From Lingula anatina (taxonomy: Eukaryota; Animalia; Brachiopoda), in NCBI GenBank assembly GCA_051362555.1, contig JBPQGU010000016.1, forward strand, positions 5,766,001 to 5,830,000: a stretch of DNA of 64,000 nt. The letters are read 5' to 3'. Below, one piece after another: positions 9,875 to 56,414 of this stretch. Position 1 is the stretch's first letter, and the number at the start of each line of letters is the position of its first letter. The notes under the pieces are model-generated. The model was not told the DNA's origin, made no database searches, and saw only the letters and a program-made list of their open reading frames with translations. A program made the position numbers and the translations under genes.

Positions 9875-10966
9875 TTAGGTGTCTTTTAAAAGAATGGACT
9901 CCGTATAACGATCAGAAGAACGATGAAAGCTGCTTCTTCCCTTTCTCCTGGAATGGCGGCCACAAAACGTCTCTCTGAGTAACTCTCGGAAACGCTTCCC
10001 GAACGCACAATAGATCAGAAAATTAACTGCCGAGTTGCATGTCACCATAAGATTACTTAACTCTCCCAAATATTTGTATCCAGTCTGTTCTGGATCCACA
10101 GCATACCATATCTGAGTTACAAGTGCCGGCAGCTGGCAAACAATGAACACGCACACCACTAAAATTAACATGAAGGTAATATTGGTTTCCGATGATGCCT
10201 GGTTTCTACTAGCAGCTCTTAGGGACTGTACGCTCATGATCCGTCGATCGGTGTTTGCCCTGTGAACAACCAGTATTAAGTTGATGTTAAGAAAAATTAA
10301 AGTGGCTAGGGGGATCACAAAATTCACCAGGCAGTATAGGGCGAAGGTATAGACGTAATGGTAGTCCTGGTCTTCCTGCAGAGCAGTTGGAACTGATACC
10401 GGTTTCAGGGTAGTGGTAGTGGTATTGTCAACACACGTCAAGTCATACGATATATAAAATTCGAAAAATCGTGGCAAGTTGAAGAGAACGGAGATCAAAG
10501 AGACGGTCGCCGTGGCTATTTTGGCCTTGGAAATTGTTGACAAACTTCGGACGCGGTGAGGCATCTTAACAGCAATGTATCGATCAACAGTTACAACAAC
10601 TACCAGCCAAACGGCCGCTGTCTGGAAGGTCATTCCAAGCGGCCATATCCACGTGTCCATGATATAGCCTATCTCGCTGAAACATTTCAAAAGCCCAGTA
10701 TTAGGATGAACAGTTGGTAACACCAACAGCAGGGCAATAATAAGAACAAGGTTGTCCATCACCGCCATGGCACGAAGCAGAAAAAATGTCACCGATCTTT
10801 TGGTATCCCGCATTAGAGTAAAAAAGGCTAACGTATTTCCAAGTAACCCCAGCAGACATAGGGGGGCCGTGATGTAGGCGTTCACCACGAACTGATAGAG
10901 GAGAAAATCTGGGTCTTCTCCAGCGATCTGGCTTAAGTTAGAACCCGTGCAATTAAGGGCGTCCAT
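9875..10966 (-). CDS. Rhodopsin-family (class A) neuropeptide GPCR, FMRFamide receptor/sex peptide receptor-like, 363 aa, single coding exon
   Basis: Seven hydrophobic segments with class A motifs: GLLGN (TM1), MAVMD (TM2), DRYIAV (TM3), FNLPRFFE (TM4/ECL2), FIVCQLP (TM6), NSAVNFLIYCAFGKRFR (TM7/H8). N-glycosylation sequons NCT and NLS at the N-terminus. Splice acceptor TTTTTATTTCAG on the minus strand puts the exon start at 11038, so 5' UTR exons lie upstream. Confidence 0.93.
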   Translation of the reverse strand: MDALNCTGSNLSQIAGEDPDFLLYQFVVNAYITAPLCLLGLLGNTLAFFTLMRDTKRSVTFFLLRAMAVMDNLVLIIALLLVLPTVHPNTGLLKCFSEIGYIMDTWIWPLGMTFQTAAVWLVVVVTVDRYIAVKMPHRVRSLSTISKAKIATATVSLISVLFNLPRFFEFYISYDLTCVDNTTTTTLKPVSVPTALQEDQDYHYVYTFALYCLVNFVIPLATLIFLNINLILVVHRANTDRRIMSVQSLRAASRNQASSETNITFMLILVVCVFIVCQLPALVTQIWYAVDPEQTGYKYLGELSNLMVTCNSAVNFLIYCAFGKRFRELLRETFCGRHSRRKGRSSFHRSSDRYTESILLKDT

Positions 10967-11561
10967 TCTCTCGTGCGTCTTTAGTAAAACTTGTTCGGCA
11001 GGTGGTTAACGAGATGAGGATCCATACATTGATAGACTCTGAAATAAAAAGACATTTAATGATTTGTACATTTGTAACTATCAAATTGCATGTGAACTCG
11101 TTACGAGCATGAATGATTCAACGCTTGGGTTATGAGTTATGCATGGAAAGATGATTATGAAACGGCGTAACAATAGGATTGATTACCAAGCATATAATAC
11201 TATAGTAATCAGGTAAATTATGCATACTAATGACTTGCATTCGACTTTGTTGTACGACTCCAACTTGTTTGTTTTCTAGATGCATTTCAAGTGAACTCAT
11301 GTACCTTAACACATTTACATAACATAATACAAAAAAACAAAAACACACACGGCAAGCCACGCATAAACTCCATAAAGTTATTAAGTTACTCTTTATGTTT
11401 GTCACAGAAAAAAACGACGAAAGTGATCGCATTTTAACATGAGGAATGGTGTGGATTTGTATAACAACCGGCGCAGCATTCACTGAAAGGTGCATGTCCA
11501 CCAATAAGTAAATATTTTACCCTTCAATAAAACAAAGACTGGCCTACCATGAGAATGGCAT

Positions 11562-25390: not shown

Positions 25391-27113
25391 AGGAGTAAGT
25401 GCTGTGTAGTAAACCCATAAAGCTTGAAATTGTAATTCAATAATAAAAAAATTACCACCCACTTGTAGATGATTGCATATATAATACCACAGAAACTGGA
25501 TGATAACTGAATTTGTATGAGAGCGCATGTGTTGGTGTTGTCTGGGTGTTGATGAAGAGTTTGTCCTTGGTGGAGGACAGAAGAACTCAAGGCCAGATGC
25601 CCTCCTCGCTAGGCAGTTTTTTAGGGGTTGCGTTTATTGTTTGGGACAGGTTCTGGATAACAGTACATCCTGGGAGAGGGGCCATCTCAAAATTGTAGGG
25701 AGGCGTGTTCTCTCAGTATGTTTACACTTCATTCTTTAGTAGTTACCTCTTAGTGAGTCAACACCCCCTCTCTCTGTAATTAAACTTTCTGTAACACAAG
25801 TATTAACATAGGAGTCTTGTTTTAGGTAGAAATGCTACCACATGTAGTACATGAACTATCAAGATACTGAAACAATGCAGTATTTCCATCTACTAGTGTA
25901 TTATTGACACCTAACCCTTTGAAAGGAGTATTTAGTTAACGGAACTCTGTACAAAACTGGTGATACGGTCCCTTAATTAAATTAATTCAAGTGAAAATCA
26001 CATGACGGACTGTCACTTGAGGTCCTATTGTTTGTCTTGACAGTTTTGATCATTTCAACCTGGTGTATCATGGGGGACAGAGCTTGCTGCAGAAACTTAG
26101 TCTTTGGCATTATTTTGCTAACATTGGTAGGTACATCTCTATTTTTTGTTTTTTATCAATATTGTAATAAAAATATACATTAAGGACATCTTCTTTAATG
26201 CAAGTGAGGTAAGGGTTTCACAGGGAAAGTTTTATATTTTTGTTTTGATTAGTCAGCAATTTCAGACACAAATATTTGTGCTTCATTTGGTATTTACTGC
26301 AGAAAATGAAATCAGTGGTTTAATTTCGATTTTGTTTTCAAAAGATATGATTAATATCCTTACTAGTTGTTAAGTATGTATATATCTGATAATTTAAGGT
26401 ATGGCTATGAAACTTTGAAATCTAACTAAAAAAAATAAATAAAAATAAATAAATAAATAAATAAAAAAGAAAAAAAAAACATTTGGATTTGAATGTGTGA
26501 TGTAATCAGTTTGACCAGAGCATTCAAGTTGGTTTTGTTGTGTTATAATAATACATGTAGGTTACTATAATAGGATTATTCTACAGTATTTTTCTTCACT
26601 AACATATTTTTCTTTATTCATAATTATTTTTGTCACTTCTTTGACAGTCAGTGCACCACATTACTTATTTTAATTTGTCAACATAATGGCTTGGTTATTA
26701 CATAACAGAGTTACACTGAATTCTAAATCTGCCCCTGGTATTCCACTCGGTGTGAATTAAGAGGGTATGTCTGGTGTGTGACAGCCTATGTCATCATTAG
26801 CCCACAGCCTCGCTTTGAACACTTTGGTATTTCGCTGTCATGCTTGTCTGTATTTTAATATGTTTTGGTGTATTCCAAGCACCATAACAAAATACAAGTG
26901 CAGTCATCCTATTGTGAGAAGCACCCCCCCCCCCCCTTCAGTGGGCCCCAAAATATTTTGGTATTTGAGAAGGCAAACGGTACCATTTGGAACAGTTTAG
27001 AACTATGATGCAGTTTGACATAATTCTAATTTCAAGAGGGGACCATTGGTGTGATCTTTTTCAGAAATCAAAGGAGGGGGGGGGGAGGCCAGGACCTCCT
27101 GATCCACCCTTAA

Positions 27114-31285: not shown

Positions 31286-32557
31286 TTAACCTGGCACTGA
31301 GATTTATATGTAGATGTGGTACATATTCACTATCACTGGAACAGTTTGACCCATACCAGTCCTGTTTGATACATGTAAATGCCAATTATTTTATCTTTTT
31401 ACTTGATATTCATTGGGAGGTTTTAATTGATGAAAATGCTAGTCATGTTTGGAAAATCAGCATGACTGGATTATTTTTCAAATGGCTTATCATACTTCTT
31501 GTGGTATTTTTCACATAGCTCTGTTGTTACTTATAACCATTCCAGAATTTTTTCCTTTAAAAGTGATGAATCATGCTAACTAACCTGTTATTTTGGTAAA
31601 CATCTGTAAGAAAACAATTTCTTGTTCTCCCTGTTTTACATCAAGCACCAGGAATTGCTCTGAGAACATTGACGGAGAATGTCCGTTTGAAAATAACAAC
31701 CCTCATGTGACTTCACTTCAGGATACAATAACACGTGGACTGGATAATATACATTGGACCATTTGAAAATTATGGGGCAAACACACAGAAGATTTGTACT
31801 TTAAATGGGGCCACAATCCTGGTTTTAATTTATTAAGCCAAACATCTGGTTTTAAGAGTAAACGCTTAGTTAACTTGTGCCCTGGAGGTCCTTCCTCATA
31901 GTTTGGACTGTGGAGAAATTGAGAACAAATCTTATTTAAAAAATATCAAAGAGTCTCTATAAATTTGATTTAGTTAAAGTTCAAAATTATTAAATCATAA
32001 ATACAAGCTTGTAAATATGGGTGAAGTTGAATTTCTCATAATTTTCATTTTCAGGAAAATCATTTTTATTTAGTAGACTCAAATGTAGCAGTATTCCCAA
32101 CAGTTTTTCATTGTGAAATCGGCTCTTAGTTATACTAGTAGAAAATGTTGCATTGAAATTTATCATTTTTTATATTTGATAATATGTATTTTTTTTCAGT
32201 TTTCATCCAAGTAAACAAGTTAATATTGCCTGGCAGTGAGAACAGGCTGTATCAGGTACCTCTGTTACAGCTATATGTACATGTAGCAGGGTTGTTGTTG
32301 TTGTTGTTGTGTGTGTGTGTATTTGTTTACAGTGAATATCTGCAGTTATATTTCTACCCCAACACATTGGAATGTAATATTGTTTGTATGAGATACTGAA
32401 GTCAGTGGTAGTGTCCAGAGCTGTAAGCACCTCTGTATCTGGGACCATCAGCCATTTCTAGCAACTGTGAAACTCGGTATTGTGACAAGCACCAGCCATG
32501 GAAGATTTTTTATTTTTGTCATTTAATAACTTTCTGTTACAACTCTTTATCTTCTAG

Positions 32558-32806
32558 CCTGCCTCAGTTGCTGGGTTAGGTTTTGTAGAAATCCTGTCTG
32601 TCACGCCTACTGCTGTCTCCCCTACTGCTGTCTCCCTGTCAGAGCTCAAAGAACTGCGTCCATGGCAGGTTGCTTTGAAGTCTGGGGGAAACCTTAGGGT
32701 TCTTGATTCCTGTCATCTTCACATGAATACAGTCCCTGCGGCAGACGACCAGGATGTCATTATTAAGAATATGGAGAAGTGCAAACTGGACTTTACACAT
32801 TGGAAG
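32558..32806 (+). CDS. Coding exon: Notch-ligand-like N-terminal (C2/MNNL-like) region, not in ORF track
   Basis: 83 stop-free codons: PASVAGLGFVEILSVTPTAVSPTAVSLSELKELRPWQVALKSGGNLRVLDSCHLHMNTVPAADDQDVIIKNMEKCKLDFTHWK. GFVEI resembles Delta SGxFEL and LDFTHW resembles Delta FxFxW. The phase-0 donor AAG|GTATAA joins the DSL exon in frame. Confidence 0.6.
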
Positions 32807-35139: not shown

Positions 35140-35431
35140 GAACCTCTTTATTTGGCATTTTCATCAGAAACTGATCCTGTAGCATACAACATGACACTGC
35201 CACGTCTCCTGGGGTCCTCCACACATATGGTGTGCTCTTCTAAACACTCTCCCTCTGTCCAGGTGTGTCTACGTGTCCACCTGGCAGTGCAGTGTGGAAC
35301 ATATTACTATGGGGACAACTGTGATGTTTACTGTCGCATACAAGAAAGAGAAGAACGTTACACTTGCGACCCAAGGACGGGGTTGAAGAAGTGTGCAAAT
35401 GGCTACAGAGGATACGGCTGCATGATCAAAG
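35140..35431 (+). CDS. Coding exon encoding a DSL (Delta/Serrate/LAG-2) domain
   Basis: Strong acceptor TTTTTTATTTCAG (phase 0). Translation ...VQCGTYYYGDNCDVYCRIQEREERYTCDPRTGLKKCANGYRGYGCMIK has the six DSL cysteines with C..YYYG..C..YC and YTCD..G.K.C..G..G..C spacing. Donor AAAG|GTTGGT, phase 1. Confidence 0.85.
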
Positions 35432-37924
35432 GTTGGTGTAAAATTTTAATGCTGTGCAGGACGGCTTCTGAGGGATAAAAGTAAAATGCTTTGAACTAAG
35501 AACATCTAATGATGTTTATTTCTTTCCTGCAAGTTTTTGTTTTCAGGGAGACGATGGCAGCCAGTTAATGCATTTTATTGATGGGCTTCTCTTTTTTTAC
35601 CTCAAAAGCAAAGAAGTGTCTATAAGTACTTAACTTTAAGGAGCATTCTATCTGTTTTTTGTCCAGATTCCTCCATCAAAAGGATCCTGATAACAAAGTA
35701 ATCTGGGAAAATCAGTGACAGTTGATAAAATATTGGTAATGTGTACATTTTTGAAATATTCTTTTTTTGTTGAATTGTTTCAGACATTAGCATAAATCAC
35801 CATACTGGGGCCAGGTTATTCCAGGCTGGGGACCATGAAACAATGTGTCCTTGGGTTCCAAGTTCTAGTCAAGGTTAATATTCTTAAAGGTCCACCAGTC
35901 TCACCTGATCCCTTACTTCAATACCATACATTTTTTCAGGACACTTTTCATTAAACAGTTGAGGTCAGTGGTAGACACCATGTAAAAAACAGACTTCTTA
36001 CATTATAAAGATTGCTGGAGGCATCTTCAGTGGGATATTTGAGTATTTAAAGTAAATTTCAGATATATTCTAGGGACCACATCAATTTTTTTGTATATTG
36101 TCCCATATACTCAAATACTCAAAATCAAAATAACCCACTGTACTTGTAAGTGTATATATCTGCTTGTTCACTTTAAATTTGAAAGTTTTGGGTATTTATT
36201 GCTCCTTCAAAACATGTACACCAATTCACCATGTAACTTTGGCCTGTTTGTTTGAAAGAAAACCATGCTGCAACATGCATTCCTTGTGATATCCATGCAG
36301 TTGTCTAATTCCTAGCTCAGACTTGATAGACGACATTTGACTTGACTCAGCAGCAGCTCTGCTAATTGTGTGAACAAAATTTAATTTGGGATCTGCCGTG
36401 GAATATGTAATCTGTGTTAAATAACCCCCCCCCCGTCAAAGGTTATAGCACCCTTCAAGGGCAGTATATATTCATTGTCAGTTGTTTTTGCAAATCAAGA
36501 GATTCAGTCAGCTTGTATTCACACTGCATGCTGTCTAAGGACAACTTATGTACATTCATGAGTGGATTTTGCTTTTATTTAAATTAAGCCCTTATTTGGA
36601 ACTGGTTGTACATATTAATAACTAATAAATCAATGAAAATTTCTAGTCTTAACACTAGCTGAAATTTGCAGTCATGACCCATAGTATTAAGTGGGCCTTG
36701 TCTGGCTTCTGTGACTTTCTCAAAACCCGTAGTGATTACATTACCTCTATTCTACATAGTTGAAAATTCATTAAAGACATCACTGTCAAAAACAATATAT
36801 ACAGGGGTAGGATGATTGATATTTGGGCAGTTAAAGTTGTTTTTAATTTTGCCAAACTCTGATGAGACTTCATGGCTCCACCTTAACTAATTGACTAGGT
36901 GTAATCAAAATAGCCATCTAAATGATTGATCAACTTAGTTGTTAACTGCCATGGCCAGGAAGTTATTGTAATCAGTTATGGATAAATGAATTCTTCAAAA
37001 ATTACAGGACATGGTCTTATTGGGGTAAGTTTCTGATAGTTTATCAAAATTTTAGCTAATGAATTTCCTTACTTGTATGTGGATGTAGGGGGGGGGGATA
37101 TGGTATAATAAATAATAATGCATATTGGGGAGACACAGTGCCAAAACTGTTATTTATGGCCCCAGTGGATCCAAACTTTTGATATCATTGTGGAATTTTA
37201 TTATTTTATTTATTATTTTTTAGGGGGGCAGTCACAATGTTGTAAAAAAGTTTTGCATCCCTGGTTTTGTTCTGCATGGTTTTTCTTTTAAATGAAAAAT
37301 ATGCGATATGAATGTTAATGATTGATAATTGAATGTCAGACATGCTCCCGTCATGAGATCTCCATATAAATAGAATATTGTTGGGAATTGGCTTTTATGT
37401 ATGTATATGCATTCAGCCTAGAAATCTGAGAATAACCTAGGATTGCAAAGGTAGCCAGGCCCCTCATGTCCAGTTGTGAAGGTCAGTATCAACTTGACCT
37501 TTTAAATTATCCTGCTGTGGTATACAAAGTTGATTGCACATGTACTTTTACTGATATATTATGTAATTGGCAGAGTTTCTGTTCTTTTCATAGAATGTAA
37601 ACTATAACCATTTTTTGTCTATTTTGTATAGTTCAACATCAAAAAGCATCTGATCTGTATTTTAGTTGTACCCATCTGTCAGATCAAAACGCTACTGATG
37701 GATGATGGGGGGGGGGGGGGGGGGGGGGGAGGGGAGGGGGGGGGCATGGGGGTTTGCCCTACTAGAGTACCTCCAAGCTTCTCATTTAAAGGAAAAAACA
37801 TGCAGAACAAAACCAGGGCTACAATACAATTTTACAACATTGTGATTACTCAAGAAAAAAAAAACCAATAGTCTACATTATGTGGAATAAACACATGAAT
37901 GATTATATGACTGTGCACAGCCGT

Positions 37925-38660
37925 ACAAGAACATTGAACAATAATGAATTAAAGAACACAGGAAATTAAGTTGTAGATCAATTGAGGAGAAATGTGACAA
38001 GATGTTTTTACTGCTTTTACCCTGTATGTGCTACCCAGAGCTTTCTACAGCTCACTCCAGATACTGTGACACATCGAGATTGGTGTGACATTTAAAAAAA
38101 ATCTTTTTGATATATTTAATTTTGTCAGTTTCATGCATTTAGCTATTTCAAACAGGGCTGGTTGAGGATAAATTATTCAACCTAAAAAACTTTTTATTTT
38201 GCAGAAATCTAAAAATTGTAAAAACAATTAAGTATCAATATTTAACATTAGTATTAAAATATTATTGCTGGCATTGTGTGCACATGTCATGTAAACTACA
38301 CACTGCATGAAGGAAGTACAATTTGATGGGAGTTATAGTTTCCAACTTTGGTGATAAGTTTGTCCTGGCAGTTTAATCTCTGTGTAAGATCACTGGATGA
38401 CCAAAGTCAAATTGTGGATATAAAAGCTTTAATATATCAATGTTTTTCAGCATTTGATAGTGATACCACCTTAGGGCTTTCTAGTGTTTGGGATAAATAT
38501 ACAAATATTAGTGACAGATCTGGGCAGAGACACAGAAACCAGCAAAATAGCAACAGATGTAGAAAACATTGAACAATATGAATAAAGAACAATGAAATTA
38601 AGTTGGAGATCAATTGAGGAAAAATGTGACAAGATGTTTTTACTGCTTTTACCCTGTATA
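37925..38660. repeat. Dispersed ~100-bp direct repeat (37925-38030 and 38565-38660)
   Basis: AACATTGAACAATA..GAA..AAAGAAC...GAAATTAAGTTG.AGATCAATTGAGGA.AAATGTGACAAGATGTTTTTACTGCTTTTACCCTGTAT occurs twice. Confidence 0.85.
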
Positions 38661-41370
38661 TGTAACAAGTGAATCTTCAACTACTTCAGCTGTCACGTTT
38701 AGAGATTCCACAATTAAATGAAATGTGCATTTAAAGTGGATTTTAGTTGACATCAAAGAGAAACTTGCTGGTTAAAATTATCAATTCATAAGAACTTGCT
38801 TGTACATGTAGTACAATAAATAAATATTAAACAGATATATCAACAAAAGTGGCAAATGGGCTTACCTTCTCCTTGGTGATTTAACTACTCTTTAAGGTCA
38901 ATACTTTGTCCAGAAATAAAAATTCTGAGAGCTCACTGTTTACTGAAATAAAGTTGCCCTATTGCACAATTTCATATCTGCCCTGGCATCAAATTATAAT
39001 AAAATTGAATCAAATTTGTTCAAGTATACTTGCCTCTATTGATTGATTCCTCTGTATACTTTCATGCTAAGACTAGCTCTCAAGGAAAAAGGACAGGTGT
39101 GAAATTTCACATCTCTTCCTCAGGTGCGTGAGTCTGACTGCTGGTTTCTGTAGAGAAGTTCTGGTAATTTGGCCTGCCCTCTGCAGAGAGAGAGATAAGT
39201 GCTACCAATGATAATGTAATCAGTAATGCTCTTTTCTGCTATGTTGTTTTCAGTGGTAATCTGTCAGCAATGAATATCTTATTATAAATCTGTCGGTCCC
39301 CAGCGGAGTTCTTGATTAGTTTGCTGATTAGAACTCACATGAGAACACTGCCAGAATACAATAGACATAAGACATCAAGGTGTGAGATATCAGTTAACAA
39401 AACATTTATTGATTCAAACTATTATTACTGAATAATTAATACATACAATCACGAATTCAATACCAATTATGAGGAACAAAAGTGGTTGAGATTGGCCTAG
39501 GGCTCATTCACATCCGATCCAACTCCGCAGCCAGACCCTCACTGGATCATACAATCAGGTTAACAGACTAAGACGCTGCCTCCTGGTATTGAGTAGAATA
39601 TAGAAAATCTGGTGATAATACCAGTATGTTGGAAACAACAGGGGGAGTACTTACCTGTTAAACTTATTGCATTCAGCAAGAGTCCTCACAGAGTTGGATT
39701 GATCTGCATAGAGTGATACTTTCATTGGAAATGAGCCCTAATTGTGCTGCTTGGATTTAGAGGGCCTTTGTATAACTGTCGGGACATAGCTTAGAATATC
39801 AATATTCTGAGAGCTTTTGTTCCATTAAAATTCAACTTCAACAACAAATGGATATCAAATTTTTATCAATATTGTTTTCCAGATTCCCAACACATATACA
39901 AGTTGTCTTTTTTTTTTTTTTTTTTTGCTGTTGATTGACTCTGTTTATGGCATTATGTGTTTCATTATCCAGTCAAGCATACAGTACCTGATATGATCTA
40001 CTATTACATGGGAAGCCTTTAAGTATGTAATGTTATATACTTATCAAATTTTCAGTATGCTGAATCATTAGGCTAGGCAAAAATACAGGAGGTTCTTCCA
40101 GAACTGAAGTCAGCTTTTTATTTTGTTTCGGATGCATTTGTTACAGAGTGCATTCCATGTGGTTGATATTAAGACCAGTTAAATCCACACCTGTGGTGAC
40201 TGAATGGAAGTAATTTTTCTCCAAGCATTTCATTTTTTATCCACAACTAAATGTTACGTTATTTTTGGATGTACGAGAAGTAATCACATTTATTTCACCT
40301 CTAGAAATCACATTAAGGAAAAAAAGAGGCAAATTGTTTATTTTGCCATTTCTTAATTGTACTAGTGGCTTGTTTTGCCTTCAGTGTGGTATTTCAGTCT
40401 TCTTTGGAGCTCAGTTTCAACTCGGCAGGTTCTTGCCATTATATCCTATATCCATCTAGGTAAATGGCAGAGCTCTGGGGGCACATTGCCCGGAGTTAAA
40501 TACAGAACAGTGAGGCAGTTTGGTACAATTGTTCTATCAGAAATGTTATAGTGGCCCCAGTGTGGATATGATATTGTGATGAATGTCTGTTTTGAGGTCT
40601 GACTTGATGTAAATGTTTACCATTAATTCACCATAGTGAAGTTAGAGGTGAGTGGATGCTAAGAACCCCCTATTTATCATGGGTAGGAATATCATTTTAT
40701 GATTACAGTTCTCCCGACACCAAACAATAAAAGTAAGAAAATGGGAAGATTTAATTAGCAGAAGTGTGTTTACAATGAAAATAATTCTTGGATGCAGGGA
40801 TATGCATTTATCTAATATATGATTTAACTAGTATATATAGGAGGTATAATTTGCTTAATATCTTTATGGAAATGTTTTTAAGATAGTTGTCAATTTCTGG
40901 TAAAGCAATATCTATATTCTGGTCGGTAAACTTGCTATTTCATGATTTTATTAGGTGTGGGTGTTACAGTGTAACTGGTTCTTGAACAGTACATATGTTA
41001 ATTTTAGCTAAATATTGGGCCCATCATACTCATTTAGAATTTCCATCTTAATTGTCAGAATTTAGTACTTTGAAGGGAATATGCTTGGTCTATCAACAGA
41101 CACAATATTATTAGTGGAATTCTCAACTAAGCATCCAGCAGTGACTGCAGTTGCCTATATATAAGGTAGAACCAGGATTCCAGGCTCAGTATTTTCTAGC
41201 CATTCATTCACACCATACTTAATTCCCAGCACTACTTGATAGCTCTGGTCTGTTTATGTGTTGATATTCTGATTTATTTTTATTGCTTTGGTAGTGCAGT
41301 GTATGCTCCTGATATACTAATTCCTATCTTGATTTAAAAACTAGGTTCACATACCTAGATCGATCTAATA

Positions 41371-41560
41371 GGATCGATCCATCTCCGAAGGGTTTCTAGC
41401 TAAACTGCTTTCAGCTGAAACAGCTTAGATGTCTGGCACGCCTTCTGAAGCTGCTAAATGATAATTAATTACCCCTAGTAGCTTCAGTCGGCTTGACAGA
41501 CATCTAAACCCCTTAAGTTGATTGCAATTTAGCAAGAATCCCCTTGGAGATAGATTGATC
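41371..41560. mobile_element. Palindromic foldback MITE-like element
   Basis: Left arm GGATCGATCCATCTCCGAAGGGTTTCTAGCTAAACTGC versus reverse complement of the right arm GGATCAATCTATCTCCAAGGGGATTCTTGCTAAATTGC. The imperfect palindrome continues to a centre near 41465. Confidence 0.7.
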
Positions 41561-42658
41561 CACAGTTAGTATGATGGCGTCTGGGAATGGTCTCTATAAG
41601 CGTAATTGCTGGGTTGTGCAATAATTTAAGCCTTCAGGTTTTTTATGTAACTGTACTCTGGTATACCCTGTATGAGGCTGTATCATATATGTTATATAGT
41701 TACAAAGATATGCATAACCTTTGCATACTTCAGTATACCCACCATGCAGTCTCTGTTCGTTAGATGTAAAATGGATAACTAAATTATACACAGAAACCTA
41801 CAGGGAAAAGAGGTTATTTGGCTTTAATCTTAAAACTTCTTTGATCACAAACATGATCAGTTCTAAGGAATCACTGCAATGTACAAGTGGAAATATCACA
41901 TTATTCCAAGAATGAATCTTCTCGCATGCACGGCGTATGTTTAGTGATATGGCCCTCAGAATTTTGTTTTATATTTTAGTCAGGGAGTTTGATAATGTTA
42001 ATATATTTGTAGATAGTTCTGCCATTAATGCAAGTAAAATTGGGGCCTTAATAATTAGATTTGATGAATGTTTGTTTTATGTATCCATTAATGTTTTAGG
42101 GTTATTGACTTTGGCACAGATTTGTAATTATTAAGTTTTGCGAATGTGTAAAAGGAATGATAGCCACAGTAGATTGTTAATGCTTCCAAATATACCCACA
42201 GTATTGTGTTAAGTTGTGAAAATAGACTTGTAAAAATAGATAAATCCATATTTAATACTTACATTAATGCAAAAGTAGTAGAAAGTTGCAAATGATCTGA
42301 AGCACTCTAAGAGAACAAAGAAGTGTACTAATTAAAGTTGGCTCTTTTCTAGAAAAGACAAGCTGTGCAGATGAGTTTTTTCATTTCGTCCAATTACTAA
42401 ATCATGTAGCAGCGCTTTGACAATTGTTTTGATTTCAGTTGACCAGCATGAGTTGACTTGCAAATAAGATCCAATACTAATGCTCCAAGCTTGCTTTTTA
42501 TGTACAGACACTGTGAGTGGATTCAGAACAGAGGACTAACTGATCTGCGGATCAAATATGGTGGTCTACCCACTAAAATGCTTTCCAATTAGACACTGAA
42601 TAGATTCCCCATGGGGATAATTCAACAAGCATTCAAGTGGATTGGCCATATTTGATCC

Positions 42659-42796
42659 GGGCCATATTTGATCAAATGTTCACTATAGAACCTTCGGACC
42701 AATGAACCCTTGATTAAAAAATCGATAAAAATGTTACCACTTTTCGGACCAATGAACCTTCGGACCAATGAACCTTCGGACTATCGAGACGCCCCC
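42659..42796. mobile_element. Short MITE with GGACCAATGAACC sub-repeats, 8-bp TSD
   Basis: Flanked by TTTGATCC (42651-58 and 42797-804). Same family as 55194-55352. Confidence 0.7.
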
Positions 42797-44264
42797 TTTG
42801 ATCCATGGATTCGTTAGGCTGCTGTACATTCTGAATACACTTTGTATGTCTGGACATATAGCCACCACCTGTCTGTGTACGCCATTAGCATCAGTGTGCA
42901 CTTGTCTCACTTTTTTTAAACATGTTTATTAGTTTATGAGAATTATAATTAGTGTTCCTCACTTAATCATAAAAAGGCAAATTGCATTTTTATCTGCATG
43001 GTTAGTTGATTTAGTTGAAAATGCACCACAGATTTCTTTTAACTCTATTGTATAGTAAACAAATAGTTTTTGATATACCTGTAGTTAATACACCCAATTA
43101 TGTATGATTTCTTATTAGCCAAAGAGTTAAGACCCTCTTAAATTTTGAGCACTTGAAATGGCATTTTGTAATTAATTTAATAAATAATAACTTATTTAAA
43201 GTGTAACAGTCTGCATATTCTCACTTGCACCATATATAGTGATGTCTGATGGTCCTCCCTCTATAGAGGAAATGAAGACAAAATGATAAACCGTAGGGCA
43301 GCCAGAGTTTTTATAACTCTGTTGTACATTATGACATCATATCAGCATGGCACATTACACACGTTAACAGCAAGTATAATTTGAGAAATGAGAAAGTAAG
43401 TGGAAAATGGCATATCAACATGTGTACCATTAGATTTGTTGCAATTATATGGTGATTTTGTGGTAGACGGGGTATGATGAAAAACCACTTCTTGACTTCA
43501 TATTTAACTTGGTTCAAACTCATTTAAAGTTGATTTATATAAATATCATATGAAGAAATTGACATTGACGTGATTTATCTTGACATCTTGTACTTGAGGT
43601 GAGTGTGTGTGGCGGGGGTGGGGGTGGGGGTGGTGGGGGTCTAGGGGGTGTAGGATGAAATTATAACGTTACCATTTCTAGTAACCTGAGGATATGTACA
43701 GCTAGGGTACCTCCTATAAAATTGGTTACTATTAGTACATGTATTACTATTAGTACATATATACATCTGTAATTTTCTTGTCTCTTTCTTAATCACAGTA
43801 AAAATCAAGTGATTAAGTTTGTTTAATAAGGATATTTGGGGGCCTTGGACTCACTGATCCACAGATCAAATATGGCCGACCCACTTGAAAGCTTGCTGCC
43901 AAAACCCCACATAGAATCCATTAGGGGAAAACAAGGAATCAGTTATTCCTTGGATCAACTTCTTTCTGAACAGGCCCTTAGATAATTTCTTAGGCATGGG
44001 ATTCTTATTGCAGACAGTCGCTGTCAAGAGTTCTGGCAAATATCCAGTACAGAAATACCTTTTTATGACCCATGAAACCCACATAGTCACTGATAACAAG
44101 AATATTGAAATGTGCAAAAATGGACCAGTTGAAGAGAAACCATGCAACTATTCATTTTGGCCAGAAAATGGATTTTCCTGGGGTAAGGGACAATTTTCCC
44201 ATCCTTACCAATGGATAATGAATCCATTATGACATTCAAAGTTAGTCCTTGGTTTTTTCTTAAA

Positions 44265-44295
<31 letters not shown>

Positions 44296-44854
44296 GTAAT
44301 ATTCCCTTAAGAAATTATTACAGAGTGTATACCCATCTATGGAGGTTACGTGATGTGATGGCAAGCACAAATTCCAGAATCATTGCATTAACCACTGTTT
44401 TGGTAGTAAAATAGAATTAATTATTATATTTCTGTAAGTTGTTTACAATGTATTTATTGTGCACTATGGATATCATAGAAACAGTTGTTATCCCTTTAAT
44501 TGTAATTGAAGCTGTGAAGCCCTGAGATCAGATGTTGTAGCTGAGATGTTACTCTTGCATGACCATAGTCACCTTGGATGTTGCTGATCCCTTCTAGCTG
44601 TTTGCAAAACTCAATTATGAAAATCTTTCCAGTTGTGTTCCAGGACTTTAAAGGACCTTTGGATACTGAATGTGTTCATGTATGATCAGTATATGATTGA
44701 AGATTGATTGTGCTTCTTTTTATTTTTTACGTTCTTTTACTTAATGTGGTAACTGTTTTTAGTAGTTGCAAAAACAATAGTTCTGGAAATAGACACATTT
44801 TCTGTCATCCACATTTATCTGAAGACAACCTCCCATTTGTTTTTCAATTGCAAG

Positions 44855-45030
44855 TATTCCTAGCTGACAAAACTGCCCACAGTTTCCTGACATATGGAGG
44901 GCGACGACGTCATAAACGAGCCAATAGCTTTTTTGAAGAGTTCAAAGAAGGCAATTTTGAGAGAGAATGTGTCGAGGAGACGTGTAGCTGGGATGAAGCC
45001 ATGGAGATCTATGAGAATTATGAGAGGGCT
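44855..45030 (+). CDS. Gla cassette exon A: gamma-carboxylase propeptide + furin site + Gla domain
   Basis: Acceptor TTTTCAATTGCAAG (phase 1) and donor GCT|GTGAGT (phase 0). Translation (V)[21 protein letters not shown]|[37 protein letters not shown] shows F/A/L propeptide spacing, an RxKR site and the ERECxEExC Gla loop. Confidence 0.93.
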
Positions 45031-46064
45031 GTGAGTTAAATGGCATGACATATATGCAACCATAAATATAGCATTTACTGTATGTATTATATGCAAAATG
45101 TATGCTGTTGTTTGCTACCTCAATCTGCATGTTTTACATATTATGTGCAATGTTTTTCTACATTAAACATATATACAGTATATGCATGTTAATATATATA
45201 CTGGTATATTCCATTTGTGCCCAGGTGTGAAATACTTATAATATGACATTATATATATTTTATGCCTGTATGGAATGTTTGCCTATAGCTATTTACCCTG
45301 CATGTTTTGGATATGTGCATTCTTATTTCAAGCTCTATAATCTCTATATATATGTGAACTGACCCATATCAGGTGCCAGACAACTATAGCTAGCTGTCAC
45401 TGTAATTATATACTCCTGCCTTGGTATACCCATGTTACTGACAGGTGGCATGTGTGTTTTTAATTTTTTTAATATGTTTTCTCTTCTAAGTTTCCTTTTT
45501 CTTTTACTTTCTGTTAGCAGAACAGGTGTGTTACACCCCCTTATCAGAGGACTGTATTCTTGGTGTCTTTATGTTTTTCTTTTTTCTGAAAATGTGTTTT
45601 GGGAAAGCATTTTATAGATTTTTTGTTGCCAAAACTCATTATTTACTTATGAATGACATCCCGTAATTGCTTGAAGTTAATGCCACACAGTTGTTGTTTT
45701 AACCAACAAAAGTAAAAATGAAAATGTCAGACAGCTACAGTAAATGATGCACAGTGGTTATGAGGCAAATACAGAAGGTAGCTTGAAACAGACTATTTCA
45801 CCTGGCACTGCAGGTAATTCCCACTGTGTAACAGACTCAGAACAGGTGTCTTGTTAGAATTCAGTTGTTGTTGTTTAAACAGATTGTTCAGGTGAAGGTG
45901 TGCATGCACTTATATAACCTGCATGGTCGGCTAAGTACATCAGTAAGCTTGAAAAACTTTTGTAAAACTGTGAAATATATTTGTTTTACAAGGCACTGAA
46001 CAGGCAATTTTCAGCATTTTTCAAGTGGACTCAGTCATTACATATTAAGTAACAAAATCAATTT

Positions 46065-46083
46065 GTGTATGTGTGTGTGTGTG

Positions 46084-46118
<35 letters not shown>
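46065..46118. repeat. (GT)n(GA)n microsatellite just upstream of exon B acceptor
   Basis: Seen directly; it ends about 35 nt before the AG at 46151-52. Confidence 0.9.
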
Positions 46119-46152
46119 TGTATTTTAGCATATCACATATTATGCTTTCCAG

Positions 46153-46331
46153 TATTTCTAGACCAGCATGATGCTAGAACTTTCCTGCATGCACATGCGC
46201 GTTCTAAGCGTGCGAACACGGGCTGGCTGGGTACGGAGGAGGTGCTGGCAGGGAACCTGGAGCGCGAGTGCGTAGAGGAAGTGTGTTCTTGGGAGGAAGC
46301 AAATGAAGTCTTTGAGAATGGAGAGAGAACC
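46153..46331 (+). CDS. Gla cassette exon B: second propeptide + furin site + Gla domain (not in ORF track)
   Basis: Acceptor TATGCTTTCCAG (phase 1) and donor ACC|GTAAGG (phase 0). Manual translation: (V)FLDQHDARTFLHAHARSKR|ANTGWLGTEEVLAGNLERECVEEVCSWEEANEVFENGERT, 59 full codons without a stop. Confidence 0.93.
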
Positions 46332-46830
46332 GTAAGGAGAAGCAGAATTGAGCAAGATGTCCTGATGCAGCTTATTGCATTTATTAAATTACTATTACTA
46401 TGTTATTTTTAATTCATATTATTTTTCAAATTAATGGACTTTGGCCCTTTTTAAAAAAAAATGAACAGAATATGCACTTTAAAGTGTTTAGATGAAGATA
46501 TAAATGTTTTTCCTTCTTTGCTTGCTAGTTTTATTGAACCATTTAACCAATAACCTATGAATTAAACCACTTGTAGGGACCCATGAGTACAATTCTATAC
46601 CTTCTGTGTGTATTTATATATGATTAATGAACTCCAAACATGACATGTTTAAAACATTATGGCTATATACTAGTAATGAATCTCAAAATCTGATATATCT
46701 TGGTACTAAAATTAACCCCCAGTGACTTATCTTTTACCCTATAACTATTTGTACATGTACCAGCTTTTATGTTCATATCCTGTCACTGTTTCACAATTGG
46801 TGTGATAATTACCATAAATATCTATTTCAG

Positions 46831-46855
46831 AGAGAGTACTGGGTAAGGAGAAATG
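46831..46855 (+). CDS. 25-nt aromatic-stack exon (REYWVRRN-D)
   Basis: TCTATTTCAG|AGA GAG TAC TGG GTA AGG AGA AAT G|GTATGT, phase 0 to 1. It links either Gla exon to EGF1 in frame, and its xE(Y/F)W motif matches factor IX exon 3 (TEFWKQYV-D). Confidence 0.88.
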
Positions 46856-47034
46856 GTATGTAATTTGTTTTAAATTATTCTTTAAATTATTGGAAATATA
46901 TTTTTATATGTAATGGAAAAATATAATTTAATTTGGCAATTGTTTGACATTTGACTTTGTTCCATGTTGTGACATATATACATTACAAAATCAGCTGTGA
47001 TAATTTTTTTAAGATTGGTCCATTTTTATGCCAG

Positions 47035-47154
47035 ATCCTAACCAGTGTGATTCCAACCCGTGTGTCTCAGAGGGGACCAGCAGATGTGAAGATTTATTCC
47101 AGAACTATAGATGTCACTGCAGGCAAGGATACACTGGAAGCAATTGTCACATCA
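47035..47154 (+). CDS. EGF1 exon of Gla-EGF protein
   Basis: (D)PNQCDSNPCVSEGTSRCEDLFQNYRCHCRQGYTGSNCHI; AG...GTGAGT boundaries, phase 1-1, 120 nt. Confidence 0.93.
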
Positions 47155-47376: not shown

Positions 47377-47423
47377 ATATAGATGACTGTGGGACAAATT
47401 GTCTAAATGGAGCTATATGCACT
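47377..47423 (+). CDS. EGF2 first-half exon
   Basis: TTCTCAG|(N)IDDCGTNCLNGAICT|GTAGGT; phase 1-0, joins [10 protein letters not shown]. Confidence 0.88.
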
Positions 47424-47689: not shown

Positions 47690-47849
47690 GACCTGATCAA
47701 TGACTATCACTGCACCTGTGCCCCAGGATTCCGCGGCACTAACTGTGAAATTAACATTAACGAGTGCCAGAGCAACCCTTGTCAAAATGGCGGCACGTGT
47801 CAAGACGGAGCAAACCGTTGGAGCTGCCAGTGTGCTCCAGGATGGACAG
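47690..47849 (+). CDS. EGF2 second half + EGF3 exon
   Basis: CTCTCCAG|[53 protein letters not shown](G)|GTTAGT; phase 0-1. Confidence 0.93.
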
Positions 47850-48507: not shown

Positions 48508-48675
48508 GTGTATCCTGCCAGTTTGACATCAATGAATGTATGTCAGCACCTTGTCTGAACGGTGGGACGTGTAACAATCTGCAGAACATGTTTACCTGTG
48601 ATTGTGTCCAGGGATTTGCAGGGAATGGATGTGAAATTAATGTGGATGATTGTTACCTTGATCAGTGCCTGAATG
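48508..48675 (+). CDS. EGF3 end + EGF4 + EGF5 start exon
   Basis: CTATTAG|(G)VSCQFDINECMSAPCLNGGTCNNLQNMFTCDCVQGFAGNGCEINVDDCYLDQCLN(G)|GTATGG; phase 1-1. Confidence 0.93.
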
Positions 48676-48919: not shown

Positions 48920-49084
48920 GTGGTTCTTGCATTGATTTAGTCAATGACTTCAGCTGTATCTGTCCCCCAGGATTCTCTGGTCCCACATGTGAAGTCAACA
49001 TTAACGAGTGTGAGAGTTCTCCCTGCCTGAACCAAGCTACCTGTATTGATGCTGACAATGGCTTCCTGTGTGAATGTTTACCAG
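48920..49084 (+). CDS. EGF5 end + EGF6 (incomplete) exon; gene probably continues beyond window
   Basis: TTTCCCCAG|(G)GSCIDLVNDFSCICPPGFSGPTCEVNINECESSPCLNQATCIDADNGFLCECLP(G)|GTAGGT. The sixth Cys of EGF6 is missing and I found no matching next exon by eye up to 64000. Confidence 0.92.
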
Positions 49085-50321
49085 GTAGGTCACTCTGGTT
49101 GGTGTGTGGTCTGAATGGGATTGGATCAGAAAACCATTTTTTATGGCTGTTTTTGTTGTTATCAGATCTACTGGCATGGAAAACAACAATGGAGCACTGC
49201 AATTAGTGTCTAGTGTCTAGTTTCCAGTTTTGCTTTTCATAAATGAACCTGGCAATTAGGAACTTGTTTCATTTTTATATAAAGACTCTTTAATATATAC
49301 GTACCGATATATAAGTGTACCAGTACTCCCTTGTGCTATTCTAGCTTCCCTACAATACTAACAGTCAAGGTCACAAGAAAGTAGTTAATTTGGCTGCTCC
49401 TATTGGCTGGCCAACTCACCACACTGATAGGAAAAAAAACATTATGGGCCATGATGGGTGGTCATCTCGTTCTCAGTGTATGGCCTGGAGAGACCATTAC
49501 ACACTGCCTGGCTTCCAGGGTGAAGGTTACCTGCTGGTCACAGTAAACCCTAATCTCTGATTGCCCCTTCCTTCCTCCACTCCTGGTTCCCTCCACAAAA
49601 ATTATTCTAGTTTCTCAGTGTCAGAATTGATTTTGTAAAATGGTACTATTTTCTGGTGGCCAGAATGGTTTTTGAAAAATGAAGCTACATGTATGTTCTG
49701 GTTGCCAAGTTTTTTTTTTTAAAAAGGACACCGGTTTTTGGTTGATTTAATCATAGATATTGATCTGCGGTCTTTTTGGTCTCTGCGATGTCGAGGTGGA
49801 GGCCATAATTAATATTGAGCATGGCTTTTGCAATGAAGGCACTGCAGACACTGATCAGAGGTTGTCTCAGTCTCAGCCTCAGCGCACGGCAAGATAAAAC
49901 TGTTACACACTGCTTCAGCATACATGTTACAATACAGCTTCAGCGCCTGAAAGCTGCCTGTGTGCCGTAGACATTGATGGACAATTGACCCTTTTTCTGT
50001 CCACTCCTTTTTCTCTCCGCAAAAAACAATATGGTTGTTATTCCTATATTGAGAGAACCACATATCAAACAGGAGGATTTGTTTTATTCCACATATGATA
50101 TACACTAGCAGCTGCAAAGAGTTAAGACAATAATAATAAAAAAACAATAAATACCTCTCTATCTTTACCATGACACAATTAAAAAAACAACATGGAAAAC
50201 AAGTTAGTTTGTGATATTTTGTGAAATATGTCTTTGGAATCGCCATTGTATAACATGGTAGCCAATGGGTATCTCAAGCACCACATGACTAAAATTCAGT
50301 CAATAAAGCAGCAATCAGTAA

Positions 50322-51615
50322 AACCCCCTTTATACTGGACAGCATCCTTTCTGCGTCCTTTGTGCAACCATGAAACTGGCCAGGATGCCGTCGGACGCTC
50401 AAAGAACGCAAGATGATTGCCAAGATAGCACAAAGAACGTTCAAGCAACGCCAAGGACAACATGGACGCTGCAAAGTTTTGAGCATGTTCAAAACAATAG
50501 CAGAGAGAACGCCATGGAGGATGGACGTTGCAAGGTCGCTCAAGGGATGCAGAGAGAACGCACAAGGATCGCCGTGGTCGCAGAAAGAAGGCACAAGCAT
50601 CGCTTTGGTTGCAGAATGAATGCTCAACGATCGGCCAGTTGTAGGCACGTAAAGTATATTTTTCACTCTCAAACGGGGCCGCACTAGGGTATTTTTCACC
50701 AGAGACAGAAAAACTTAGGGCAACAGCTACTAGTGATCTCATACCAGCCTCCATTTGGTATTTCTTCCTAACATTCCTGAACCAATCCATTTTTGGAGAT
50801 AATTTTAGAACGAACATTTTGTTTTTTTTCAAGATCTTGTTGCAGTTTCTGTAGACTGTGTCTTTTGAAAATGGATTCAAAAGTTTTGTGGTGTCAGTCA
50901 GCCTTTCTGGTCTTCAGCACCTGTCCATCCATCTTATAAGGACAACAGTGATCATCTGGCTTACGGTAATGTGCCATGAATTTCGATCAGTAGAAAATAA
51001 TTCAATTTAGGAAAAGATCATTTGGCCGAAATTCATGAAATGGAGGTGCTCAGAACTTCCAAATGTACGAATTTCATGGAATTTGTCAATTTTGACCGGA
51101 AATTGTCTGTTCGTTGCTATGCCTTCTGTTATCTTCTCCCGACGATCTATTTAGAGTTACCATAATGTATGATGTGTGAGTGTCGGTAATTGCGACCAAA
51201 GGGATACACGTACTTTCACCCAATCACTGTGTATGGCCAAAGGTGCTAGATAACGAGCAGTATTGTTGGCTAGGGAAACAAAACAGCATCGTTATTAGTA
51301 GTGTCGTTTTTCAAAAGCGATTCTGGCAGCAAGAAACTAGTGTCGTCTTAATGGTTACTCAAAACATCGCAATGGACACTGTGGTTTGCACAGGGGACAC
51401 ACAGGGGAGGCAGACTGGACACTCAGTGGACACACAGGTCGCTGGCAGTTTTAATGGTAAAATCAGGATTCAGTCCTTCAAAGGACACTCAAGGAATGCA
51501 GATGCCTTTACACTGAGACACGATTTAATTACTTTGGCGACCATTAAGCTTCCTGGCCACATTTTTTGATCGCAGAAGGGATGCAGAGAAGACCCCCTCC
51601 AGTGTAAAGGGGCCT
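50322..51615 (-). mobile_element. Non-autonomous PIF/Harbinger element with TAA TSD
   Basis: TIRs AACCCCCTTTATACTGGA and AGGCCCCTTTACACTGGA (15/18). TAA at 50319-21 and 51616-18. The empty site GTCAGTAACATGCTAC is present in the paralogous flank at ~55841. The internal minus-strand remnant MEAGMRSLVAVALSFSVSGEKYPS resembles Harbinger transposase LEPGLKLAITLRFLATGDxYxS. Confidence 0.88.
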
Positions 51616-51647: not shown

Positions 51648-52184
51648 TTAGTCACGGCTACCTAAAATGACATCAGTGGTATTGAACTCTTGATGGTACC
51701 AATAGAGCTCGTATGCACTCATAAATTCCTCCGCATCAAGGACGCCATTAGCGTTCTGATCAATTACATCAAAAATTGGTTGAATCTCAGCTGTGTTGCG
51801 AAAAACAAAAAGGAATTTGGAATACTCATCTACTGTCCACTTGCCATCACAGTCGATATCAAACGTGCCAAACATATCTGATGAGATTTCAGCGATCTCC
51901 TCTGTTGAAATAGGAATGTCTATCTCGGACTCTTGAAGAAATTCTTCCAATGTAATGTTTGTTTTATAGTTTGTGTATTTGTTTGACCACCAGACCTTAA
52001 AGGCATTGGAAAACATACCATTCACTGCCATAGCTCTCCAAGACGGCAGAACTTTTTGAGCTCGTTTTGTTGTTAAACCATCATGTTCTTCTTCAGTAAC
52101 GATGCCATCTTCATCAACGTCAATGATATCAAAGAATGCTTTGTACTTGGTAACCCAGTAGGAACTAAACTTTCGGTTGGTGTT
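51648..52184 (-). CDS. EF-hand protein copy 1, main coding exon (SCP/aequorin/calexcitin fold)
   Basis: Acceptor ATATTTTAG (phase 0); NTNRKFSSYWVTKYKAFFDIIDVDEDGIVTEEEH...TDVILGSRD*. EF loops DVDEDGIVTEEE, DIDCDGKWTVDE and DQNANGVLDAEE, with a degenerate EF2. Confidence 0.9.
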   Translation of the reverse strand, partial: NTNRKFSSYWVTKYKAFFDIIDVDEDGIVTEEEHDGLTTKRAQKVLPSWRAMAVNGMFSNAFKVWWSNKYTNYKTNITLEEFLQESEIDIPISTEEIAEISSDMFGTFDIDCDGKWTVDEYSKFLFVFRNTAEIQPIFDVIDQNANGVLDAEEFMSAYELYWYHQEFNTTDVILGSRD

Positions 52185-55877: not shown

Positions 55878-56414
55878 TTAGGCACGGCTACCAAAAATGA
55901 TATCAGTGGTGCTGAACTCTTGATGGTACCAGAAGAGGTAGTATGCACTAACAAATTCCTTTGCATCAAGGACGCCATTTGCATTCTGATCAATTGCATC
56001 AAAAATTGGTTGAATCTCAGCTGTGTTGCGGTGAACAAACAGAAATTTGGAATACTCATCTACTGTCAACGTGCTATCGCAGTCAATATCAAATGTGCCA
56101 AACATATTTGATGAGATTTCAGCGGCCTCCTCCGTTGAAATAAAAATATCCACCTCAATCTCTTGAAGAAATTCTTCGAATGTAATATTTGTTTTATAGT
56201 TTGTGTATTTGTTTGACCACCAGACTTGAAAGGCATTTGAAAACATACCATTCACTGCCATAGCTCTCCAAGAAGGCAGAACTTTTCTAGCTCGTTTTGT
56301 TGTTAAACCAACATATTCTTCCATCGTAACGATGCCATCTTCATCAACGTCAATGATATCAAAGAAAGCTTTGTACTTTGTAATCCAGTAGGAACTTAAG
56401 TTTCGGTTGGTGTT
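55878..56414 (-). CDS. EF-hand protein copy 2, main coding exon (paralog of 51648-52184); signal exon not found in window
   Basis: Same 537-nt length and acceptor as copy 1; NTNRNLSSYWITKYKAFFDIIDVDEDGIVTMEEY...TDIIFGSRA*; open frame. The EF3 loop reads DIDCDSTLTVDE. Confidence 0.85.
   Translation of the reverse strand, partial: NTNRNLSSYWITKYKAFFDIIDVDEDGIVTMEEYVGLTTKRARKVLPSWRAMAVNGMFSNAFQVWWSNKYTNYKTNITFEEFLQEIEVDIFISTEEAAEISSNMFGTFDIDCDSTLTVDEYSKFLFVHRNTAEIQPIFDAIDQNANGVLDAKEFVSAYYLFWYHQEFSTTDIIFGSRA

Follow-up and report, generated by a model that had tools for sequence, protein, structure and literature searches.

Alternative Gla exons in a DSL-Gla-EGF gene of Lingula anatina and a candidate RBFOX element between them

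We find that a gene of the brachiopod Lingula anatina encodes a protein of the order C2-DSL-propeptide-furin site-Gla-EGF and carries two neighbouring Gla exons, A and B, which are old duplicates of each other and only one of which can be used at a time in frame. By analogy with known switches, the cluster of TGCATG words between them may be an RBFOX element which favours exon A together with a GU-binding cofactor, a reading that we regard as evenly balanced. What appears to be new, judging from the literature searched, is a pair of splice-alternative Gla exons in a known and little-studied protein type, along with the candidate RBFOX switch.

Sequence and read data

All coordinates are those of the window, by which we mean the whole 64-kb stretch of DNA analysed, and this window was used as the background for TGCATG in place of genome-wide introns. 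RNA evidence came from seven of nine available raw-read runs of the same species (X1, X3, X4, X5, X6, X7 and X9), whose samples carry no tissue labels. In the set of four runs (X4, X5, X6 and X9) 34, 12, 24 and 14 reads per run were found at the locus, and a joint was listed from a threshold of 3 reads.

Results

The exons assigned to the gene are collected in Table 1 together with the features of the intron between A and B. Besides the candidate signal-peptide exon given there, which is preferred, another at 31462-31503 was considered and dropped, as it failed the scan. The exon likely to encode the first part of the C2-like domain had no Pfam match and no listed joint. At the other end of the gene, Pfam EGF matches were obtained in four of the five EGF-coding exons, the 47-nt exon having been left out of the scan; three joints of the GT-AG type were listed in the EGF region, a loose read end at 49082 had no match in the window, and the exon following 49084 lies outside it. 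The reads that join the DSL exon to exon A place the Gla module inside the protein, in the order C2-like, DSL, propeptide, basic site, Gla, the 25-nt EYW exon and EGFs. DSL, propeptide, basic site, Gla and EGF thus follow each other in one transcript, as is characteristic of Ci-Gla2.

Table 1. Positions of the gene's exons and of the sequence elements around Gla exons A and B.
Feature	Position	Strand	Remarks
Candidate signal-peptide exon	26070-26126	+	Predicted; ATG, hydrophobic core, phase-0 donor GTAGGT; best of scan upstream of 32558
Likely first part of C2-like domain	32558-32806	+	AG/GT ends, in frame with DSL exon; low X4 depth
End of C2-like domain and DSL exon	35140-35431	+	Ends in phase 1; PF01414 E 2.8e-6, above cut-off; joined to A
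TGCATG upstream of A	44556-44561	+	299 nt before exon A
Gla exon A	44855-45030	+	176 nt, phase 1 to 0; PF00594 E 1.3e-12; reads in 4/4 runs
A-B intron	45031-46152	+	1122 nt; 5 TGCATG, 2 more GCATG, 6 CAGGTG
Four (T)GCATG	45043-45304	+	+13, +96, +153, +269 from A donor; predicted pro-A
TGCATG pair	45901-45925	+	-252, -233 from B acceptor; predicted repressors of B
(TG)21 then (AG)n tract	46064-46119	+	Just 5' of B acceptor; candidate cofactor site
Gla exon B	46153-46331	+	179 nt, phase 1 to 0; PF00594 E 4.9e-14; reads in 3/4 runs
Shared mini-exon, aromatic stack (REYWVRRN)	46831-46855	+	25 nt; depth in its bin in 3/4 runs
Five EGF-coding exons	47035-47154, 47377-47423, 47690-47849, 48508-48675, 48920-49084	+	

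Several other features were noticed in the window. Two near-duplicate single-ORF EF-hand genes, which we take to be sarcoplasmic calcium-binding-like, lie at 51651-52184 and 55881-56414 on the minus strand, probably inside an intron of more than 15 kb after 49084. An intronless rhodopsin-family GPCR of 376 codons, Srw/peptide-receptor-like, is found at 9878-11005 (minus strand). A broken remnant of a Tc1/mariner-like transposase, recognised by eye in the translations, lies at 1-917. Dispersed repeats at 39600-44480 and 50250-50700 attract heavy RNA read matches from other loci.

Both Gla exons match PF00594 above the cut-off. Exon A encodes a propeptide, a basic cleavage site RRRHKR and a Gla domain beginning ANSFFEE, and exon B a propeptide, an RSKR site and a Gla domain beginning ANTGWLGTEE; the predicted product accordingly has the marks of a Gla protein, namely propeptide, basic site, a Glu-rich domain with an ExxxExC loop, and an aromatic stack. 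As neighbours of like length and phase, homologous to each other and with intact splice sites (AG/GT ends), A and B have the properties of tandem duplicate exons, and no third copy was found in the window. They are 55% identical, which does not exceed the similarity of each to a vertebrate Gla domain. Each has 11 Glu, and both Cys are kept in B. In the core, where DNA identity is 64%, 21 of 32 residues are shared and 12 of these 21 are encoded by different codons, which indicates that the duplication is old and that B, which looks maintained by selection, was apparently not left to drift. A tree of seven Gla segments had support for none of its four branches. Pairing of the docking-selector kind was also considered; the inverted repeats in 44480-47034 are short and AT-rich, and no competing arm was seen among the 25 of 60 pairs listed.

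With the exon ends defined by reads, a transcript with A alone stays open for 467 codons and one with B alone for 468, whereas joining A to B leads to a stop at 46159 and omitting both leads to a stop at 46854. Double inclusion and double skipping are both excluded by these early stops, and A and B are therefore mutually exclusive at the level of the frame. Skipping of A, B and the mini-exon all together (35431 to 47035) keeps the frame and might yield a Gla-less C2-DSL-EGF protein, a form unseen in the reads.

Reads at the locus were of sense orientation in the stranded runs. The joint from the DSL exon to exon A was listed with 3 reads in X4, and loose letters matched the end of the DSL exon in 28 of 28 tested. 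Joints from A or B to the shared mini-exon (A-C, B-C), from the DSL exon to B and from A to B were absent at 3 reads or more, at a depth (12-34 reads per run) too low to exclude A-B. In X9 the bin totals equal the exact exon ends, with 39 nt at the end of A, 28 nt at the end of B and 48 nt on the 25-nt mini-exon, and in X6 they likewise match exon ends (28 and 25 nt); this arithmetic implies single A-to-C and B-to-C reads, and in both runs the reads on B end at its donor. As the A-C and B-C joints stay below threshold, exclusivity at the RNA level rests on the frame and on this bin arithmetic. Read bases in the bins of A and B were 920/161 in X4, 262/0 in X5, 770/289 in X6 (A including unspliced reads) and 207/30 in X9, so that A exceeded B in all four, a pattern which fits a broad default use of A as well as a tissue-restricted choice. 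Among the remaining runs, X1 showed a depth of 0.38 in the bin containing B against 0.08 in the bin that includes part of A (a handful of reads), X7 the reverse (0.21 against 0.35; few reads) and X3 no depth in either. In X6 (44500-45155), sense reads were also seen 5' of A, and four reads cross the A donor unspliced and carry 45041 T>G; likely these represent unspliced precursor. In run X4 some 484 read bases fall within the intron, across 45320-45811. A strong cryptic acceptor, a long pyrimidine tract followed by TAG/CAG, lies at 45480-45527.

The original prediction had placed an RBFOX cluster between the two exons, and every site it named was recovered: TGCATG at 45126, 45183, 45299, 45901 and 45920 on the plus strand of the A-B intron and at 46186 within exon B, with additional GCATG at 45043, 45448 and 46166, the two exon B sites being at +14 (GCATG) and +34 (TGCATG). 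The UG repeat said to precede the B acceptor is a (TG)21 at 46064-46105, that is 89-48 nt before it, and is an ordinary microsatellite, of which others are present in the window. TGCATG is indeed absent from the 499-nt intron 3' of B, where about 0.3 would be expected, hence the absence has little weight. The sense words of the intron further include six CAGGTG (45222, 45370, 45442, 45523, 45843 and 45889), with one CACCTG at 45799; the CAGGTG set (45222-45894) could be an E-box cluster or decoy CAG/GU junctions.

The estimate of about 0.2 TGCATG expected in the A-B intron proved too low, as it follows from single-base composition only (0.24). The plus strand of the window without this intron has 0.57 TGCATG per kb, which gives 0.64 expected against 5 seen (Poisson P(>=5)=5e-4), while dinucleotide and trinucleotide shuffles of the intron gave means of 1.22 and 1.34 (P 0.007 and 0.005), or 0.98 and 1.18 (P 0.003 and 0.002) with the microsatellite taken out. 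Thus the density does exceed background, and none of the 54 other 1122-nt tiles of the window holds more than three TGCATG, but the excess is 4-8 fold and not about 25 fold, with P values of 5e-4 to 7e-3 that do not yet allow for post hoc choice. Among hexamers of the intron TGCATG ranked 10th of 770. By itself, the motif cluster is a moderate signal.

As to position, (U)GCAUG words are sense-enriched near the exons, and eight of the nine (T)GCATG of the intron and exon B fall at positions from which, by the RBFOX map, A would be favoured or B repressed; the remaining one is mid-intron. The site at -299 of A, which the original prediction left out, would oppose A under the same map. Functional RBFOX sites are mostly nearer to the exon than -233. 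The proposed A/B switch is in agreement with two frame-incompatible Gla exons that are both transcribed and with sites consistent with the RBFOX map. Taken by themselves, the three TGCATG in the first 300 nt of the intron do not rise significantly above what local composition predicts (P 0.05-0.15).

Comparison with known switches gave a mixed outcome for the two analogies that had been proposed. The layout of FGFR2 IIIb/IIIc fits: there, as here, tandem duplicate exons of a cell-surface protein are accompanied by UGCAUG before and in the downstream exon and by a GU element in front of the acceptor. Fox-2 represses the downstream exon of FGFR2 via UGCAUG upstream of and inside it and cooperates with ESRP on the GU-rich element before the acceptor, and Fox2 is broadly expressed, the upstream exon favoured by RBFOX being epithelial and ESRP setting the specificity (PMC2880598, PMC2777236). 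The swapped part is half an Ig domain in FGFR2 and the whole propeptide-Gla module in the window gene, and the FGFR2 switch has been tested by experiment and is conserved, ours being a candidate. The egl-15 analogy fits less well. In egl-15 5B/5A (ASD-1/FOX-1 with SUP-12) and in unc-32 7a/7b, RBFOX and a GU-binding partner choose between exclusive exons, but neither site layout resembles that of the window gene: in egl-15 the sites are located before 5B, the upstream exon, muscle uses 5A further downstream and specificity comes from SUP-12, and the RBFOX site of unc-32 is in intron 7b.

To place the protein we compared it with sequences on record. When the DSL exon was used in a search, one of 94 matches carried a Gla domain, namely Tubulanus polymorphus XP_074663134.1 (P0028), which has the same domain order. 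With P0028 as query against proteins longer than 511 aa, one of 107 was Ciona gla2, that is Ci-Gla2 (ABJ09591.1/Q008W4). Kulman et al. reportedly described Ci-Gla1-4 in 2006. Both proteins share with the window gene the series signal peptide, C2-like, DSL, internal propeptide, basic site, Gla and EGFs, and the first EGF begins DPNQC in the window gene and in Ci-Gla2 alike; sequence databases thus already contain the DSL-Gla-EGF architecture. Ci-Gla2 continues with many EGFs and then a transmembrane segment, whereas the C-terminal end of the window gene is out of view. One identical Gla segment is present in five of five Ciona records and one Gla segment in the single Tubulanus record, in contrast to the two alternatives here. 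When the DSL exon was run through a word-index search, none of 20 candidates matched; for exon B, 11 of 45 candidates were Gla proteins, nine of them vertebrate by name and two unnamed. A metagenome scan with exon A returned three matches, short or weak, and the ESM Atlas separate DSL or Gla clusters only, all with scores below 0.9. Our literature search, which reached few subscription papers, found none that describes splice-alternative Gla exons for a gene of the DSL-Gla type. An optional Gla exon exists in the ascidian Gla-RTK.

Canonical Notch ligands (Delta/Serrate/Jagged) have the same C2-DSL-EGF order, and the DSL cysteines are kept here, but the window gene inserts a cleavable propeptide-Gla block between DSL and EGF1. 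Neither the window exons nor P0028 nor Ci-Gla2 matched PF07657 (MNNL). The low-confidence model of the nemertean P0028 (mean pLDDT 52) is predicted to be beta-rich N-terminally and resembles C2-DSL and C2 structures, with DLL1, DLL4 and Jagged as its best matches. The Notch-binding face of the Jagged1 DSL is given as F199, R201, R203, D205 and F207 (PMC3415683). The corresponding residues here are Y, R, Q, R and E, so that one of five is identical (R201) and one conservative. Since this face is lost bar R201, the protein is not to be classed as a canonical Notch ligand.

Discussion

The FGFR2-like layout, GU tract included, makes the joint action of RBFOX and a GU-binding cofactor in biasing splicing towards A the best reading of the locus. 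RBFOX would bind the (U)GCAUG sites, favouring A and repressing B; a cofactor on the GU tract would act with it, and this cofactor, rather than the RBFOX level, would set the tissue pattern. The two out-of-frame forms would be removed by nonsense-mediated decay.

The main alternative, possible if less probable, is that the exons are exclusive and the cluster incidental, being made of alternating purine-pyrimidine, CpG-decayed words picked post hoc, and that the weak UG/AG-masked acceptor of B and the frame filter decide; factors of the CELF, hnRNP M or TDP-43 type would be candidates for binding the UG/AG tract. Such an explanation draws strength from the acceptor itself, with seven other AG within the 47 nt upstream of it and a lack of consensus branch words over 120 nt, and from the prevalence of A over B in four of four runs. 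It is likewise helped by shuffles that expect 1.0-1.3 TGCATG, by the local P of 0.05-0.15 at the 5' sites and by a sense excess over the whole window, which has 41 TGCATG on the plus strand against 21 on the minus strand (binomial P 0.015) and 21.5-33 expected under Markov orders 1-4, only the plus strand being above low-order expectation. Random placement of the 41 gave some 1161-nt stretch with at least 5 in 17% of trials (scan P 0.17) and with at least 6 in 2.5%. Yet the enrichment persists under trinucleotide shuffling (P 0.002-0.005), and the densest cluster in 64 kb falls exactly on the sole duplicate, and sole alternative, exon pair found. CpG is depleted (o/e 0.55), but CpG decay is strand-symmetric and the sites of the A-B intron are split 5 sense to 1 antisense. 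We consider it extremely unlikely that exon B is only a decaying duplicate, spliced as noise, which would leave nothing to switch. B is the minor form in four of four runs, is absent in X5 and has no listed joint into it; against decay, B keeps intact AG/GT ends, a cleavage site, an open frame, 11 Glu and both Cys, although its identity to A is 55% and the DNA of the core is 64% identical, and in X6 and X9 the B reads end at the donor.

Two further readings concern what the intron words do. The original prediction held that RBFOX-expressing muscle and neurons select A and other tissues B, so that RBFOX expression alone would be the switch. The site positions do suit A-on/B-off, and X1 hints at B above A (0.38 against 0.08, a handful of reads from an unlabelled sample), but the conclusion does not follow and we hold it to be improbable: a second factor, ESRP in FGFR2 and SUP-12 in egl-15, gives the specificity, the RBFOX proteins of both systems are described as having broad expression, the upstream exon of FGFR2 is epithelial, and the egl-15 layout differs. 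Alternatively, the words could mark a DNA enhancer built of the six CAGGTG and one CACCTG, E-boxes which we take to be of the Snail/ZEB/proneural type, with TGCATG as a by-product. Delta genes are E-box targets, and CAGGTG is more strongly enriched than TGCATG (6 against 0.34-0.35 expected, P ~2e-6; P<=0.001 in shuffles). We think such an enhancer very unlikely as the explanation, since a strand bias of 6:1 is more in keeping with an RNA word or with decoy CAG/GU junctions than with a DNA site and the sites inside exon B are left unexplained; it would also be compatible with RBFOX control.

Returning to a choice between A and B by RBFOX and a GU-binding cofactor, its effect on the protein may be considered. 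In vertebrate Gla proteins the propeptide recruits the carboxylase. By the biochemistry of those proteins, cleavage of the furin type at RHKR or RSKR would expose the Gla N-terminus and set free a C2-DSL piece. Exchanging one exon for the other would then replace the propeptide that docks the carboxylase as well as the loop that binds the membrane (ANSFFEE or ANTGWLGTEE). The Gla-EGF product is likely membrane-anchored, by analogy with Ci-Gla2. The C2 domains of Notch ligands bind phospholipid in a calcium-dependent manner (PMC3888931), and the precursor would therefore carry two lipid-binding modules. A wider picture, which we put forward tentatively and regard as rather doubtful, is that of a Notch-ligand-like precursor common to tunicates and lophotrochozoans which is cut at an internal furin site into a soluble C2-DSL part and a membrane Gla-EGF lipid sensor, with an RBFOX-cofactor switch in Lingula anatina that swaps the whole Gla module, for carboxylase docking and membrane binding alike, by tissue.

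The locus bears on the role of Gla domains before vertebrate clotting, and carries the architecture of Ci-Gla2 outside the tunicates, into at least one nemertean and Lingula anatina. On a single scaffold it presents two natural Gla variants, in which carboxylation and lipid binding are directly comparable. If the RBFOX element is real, the switch layout of FGFR2 would be repeated in an unrelated invertebrate gene, and a vitamin K-dependent domain selected by splicing would, if true, link vitamin K with signalling by cell contact well before blood clotting arose.
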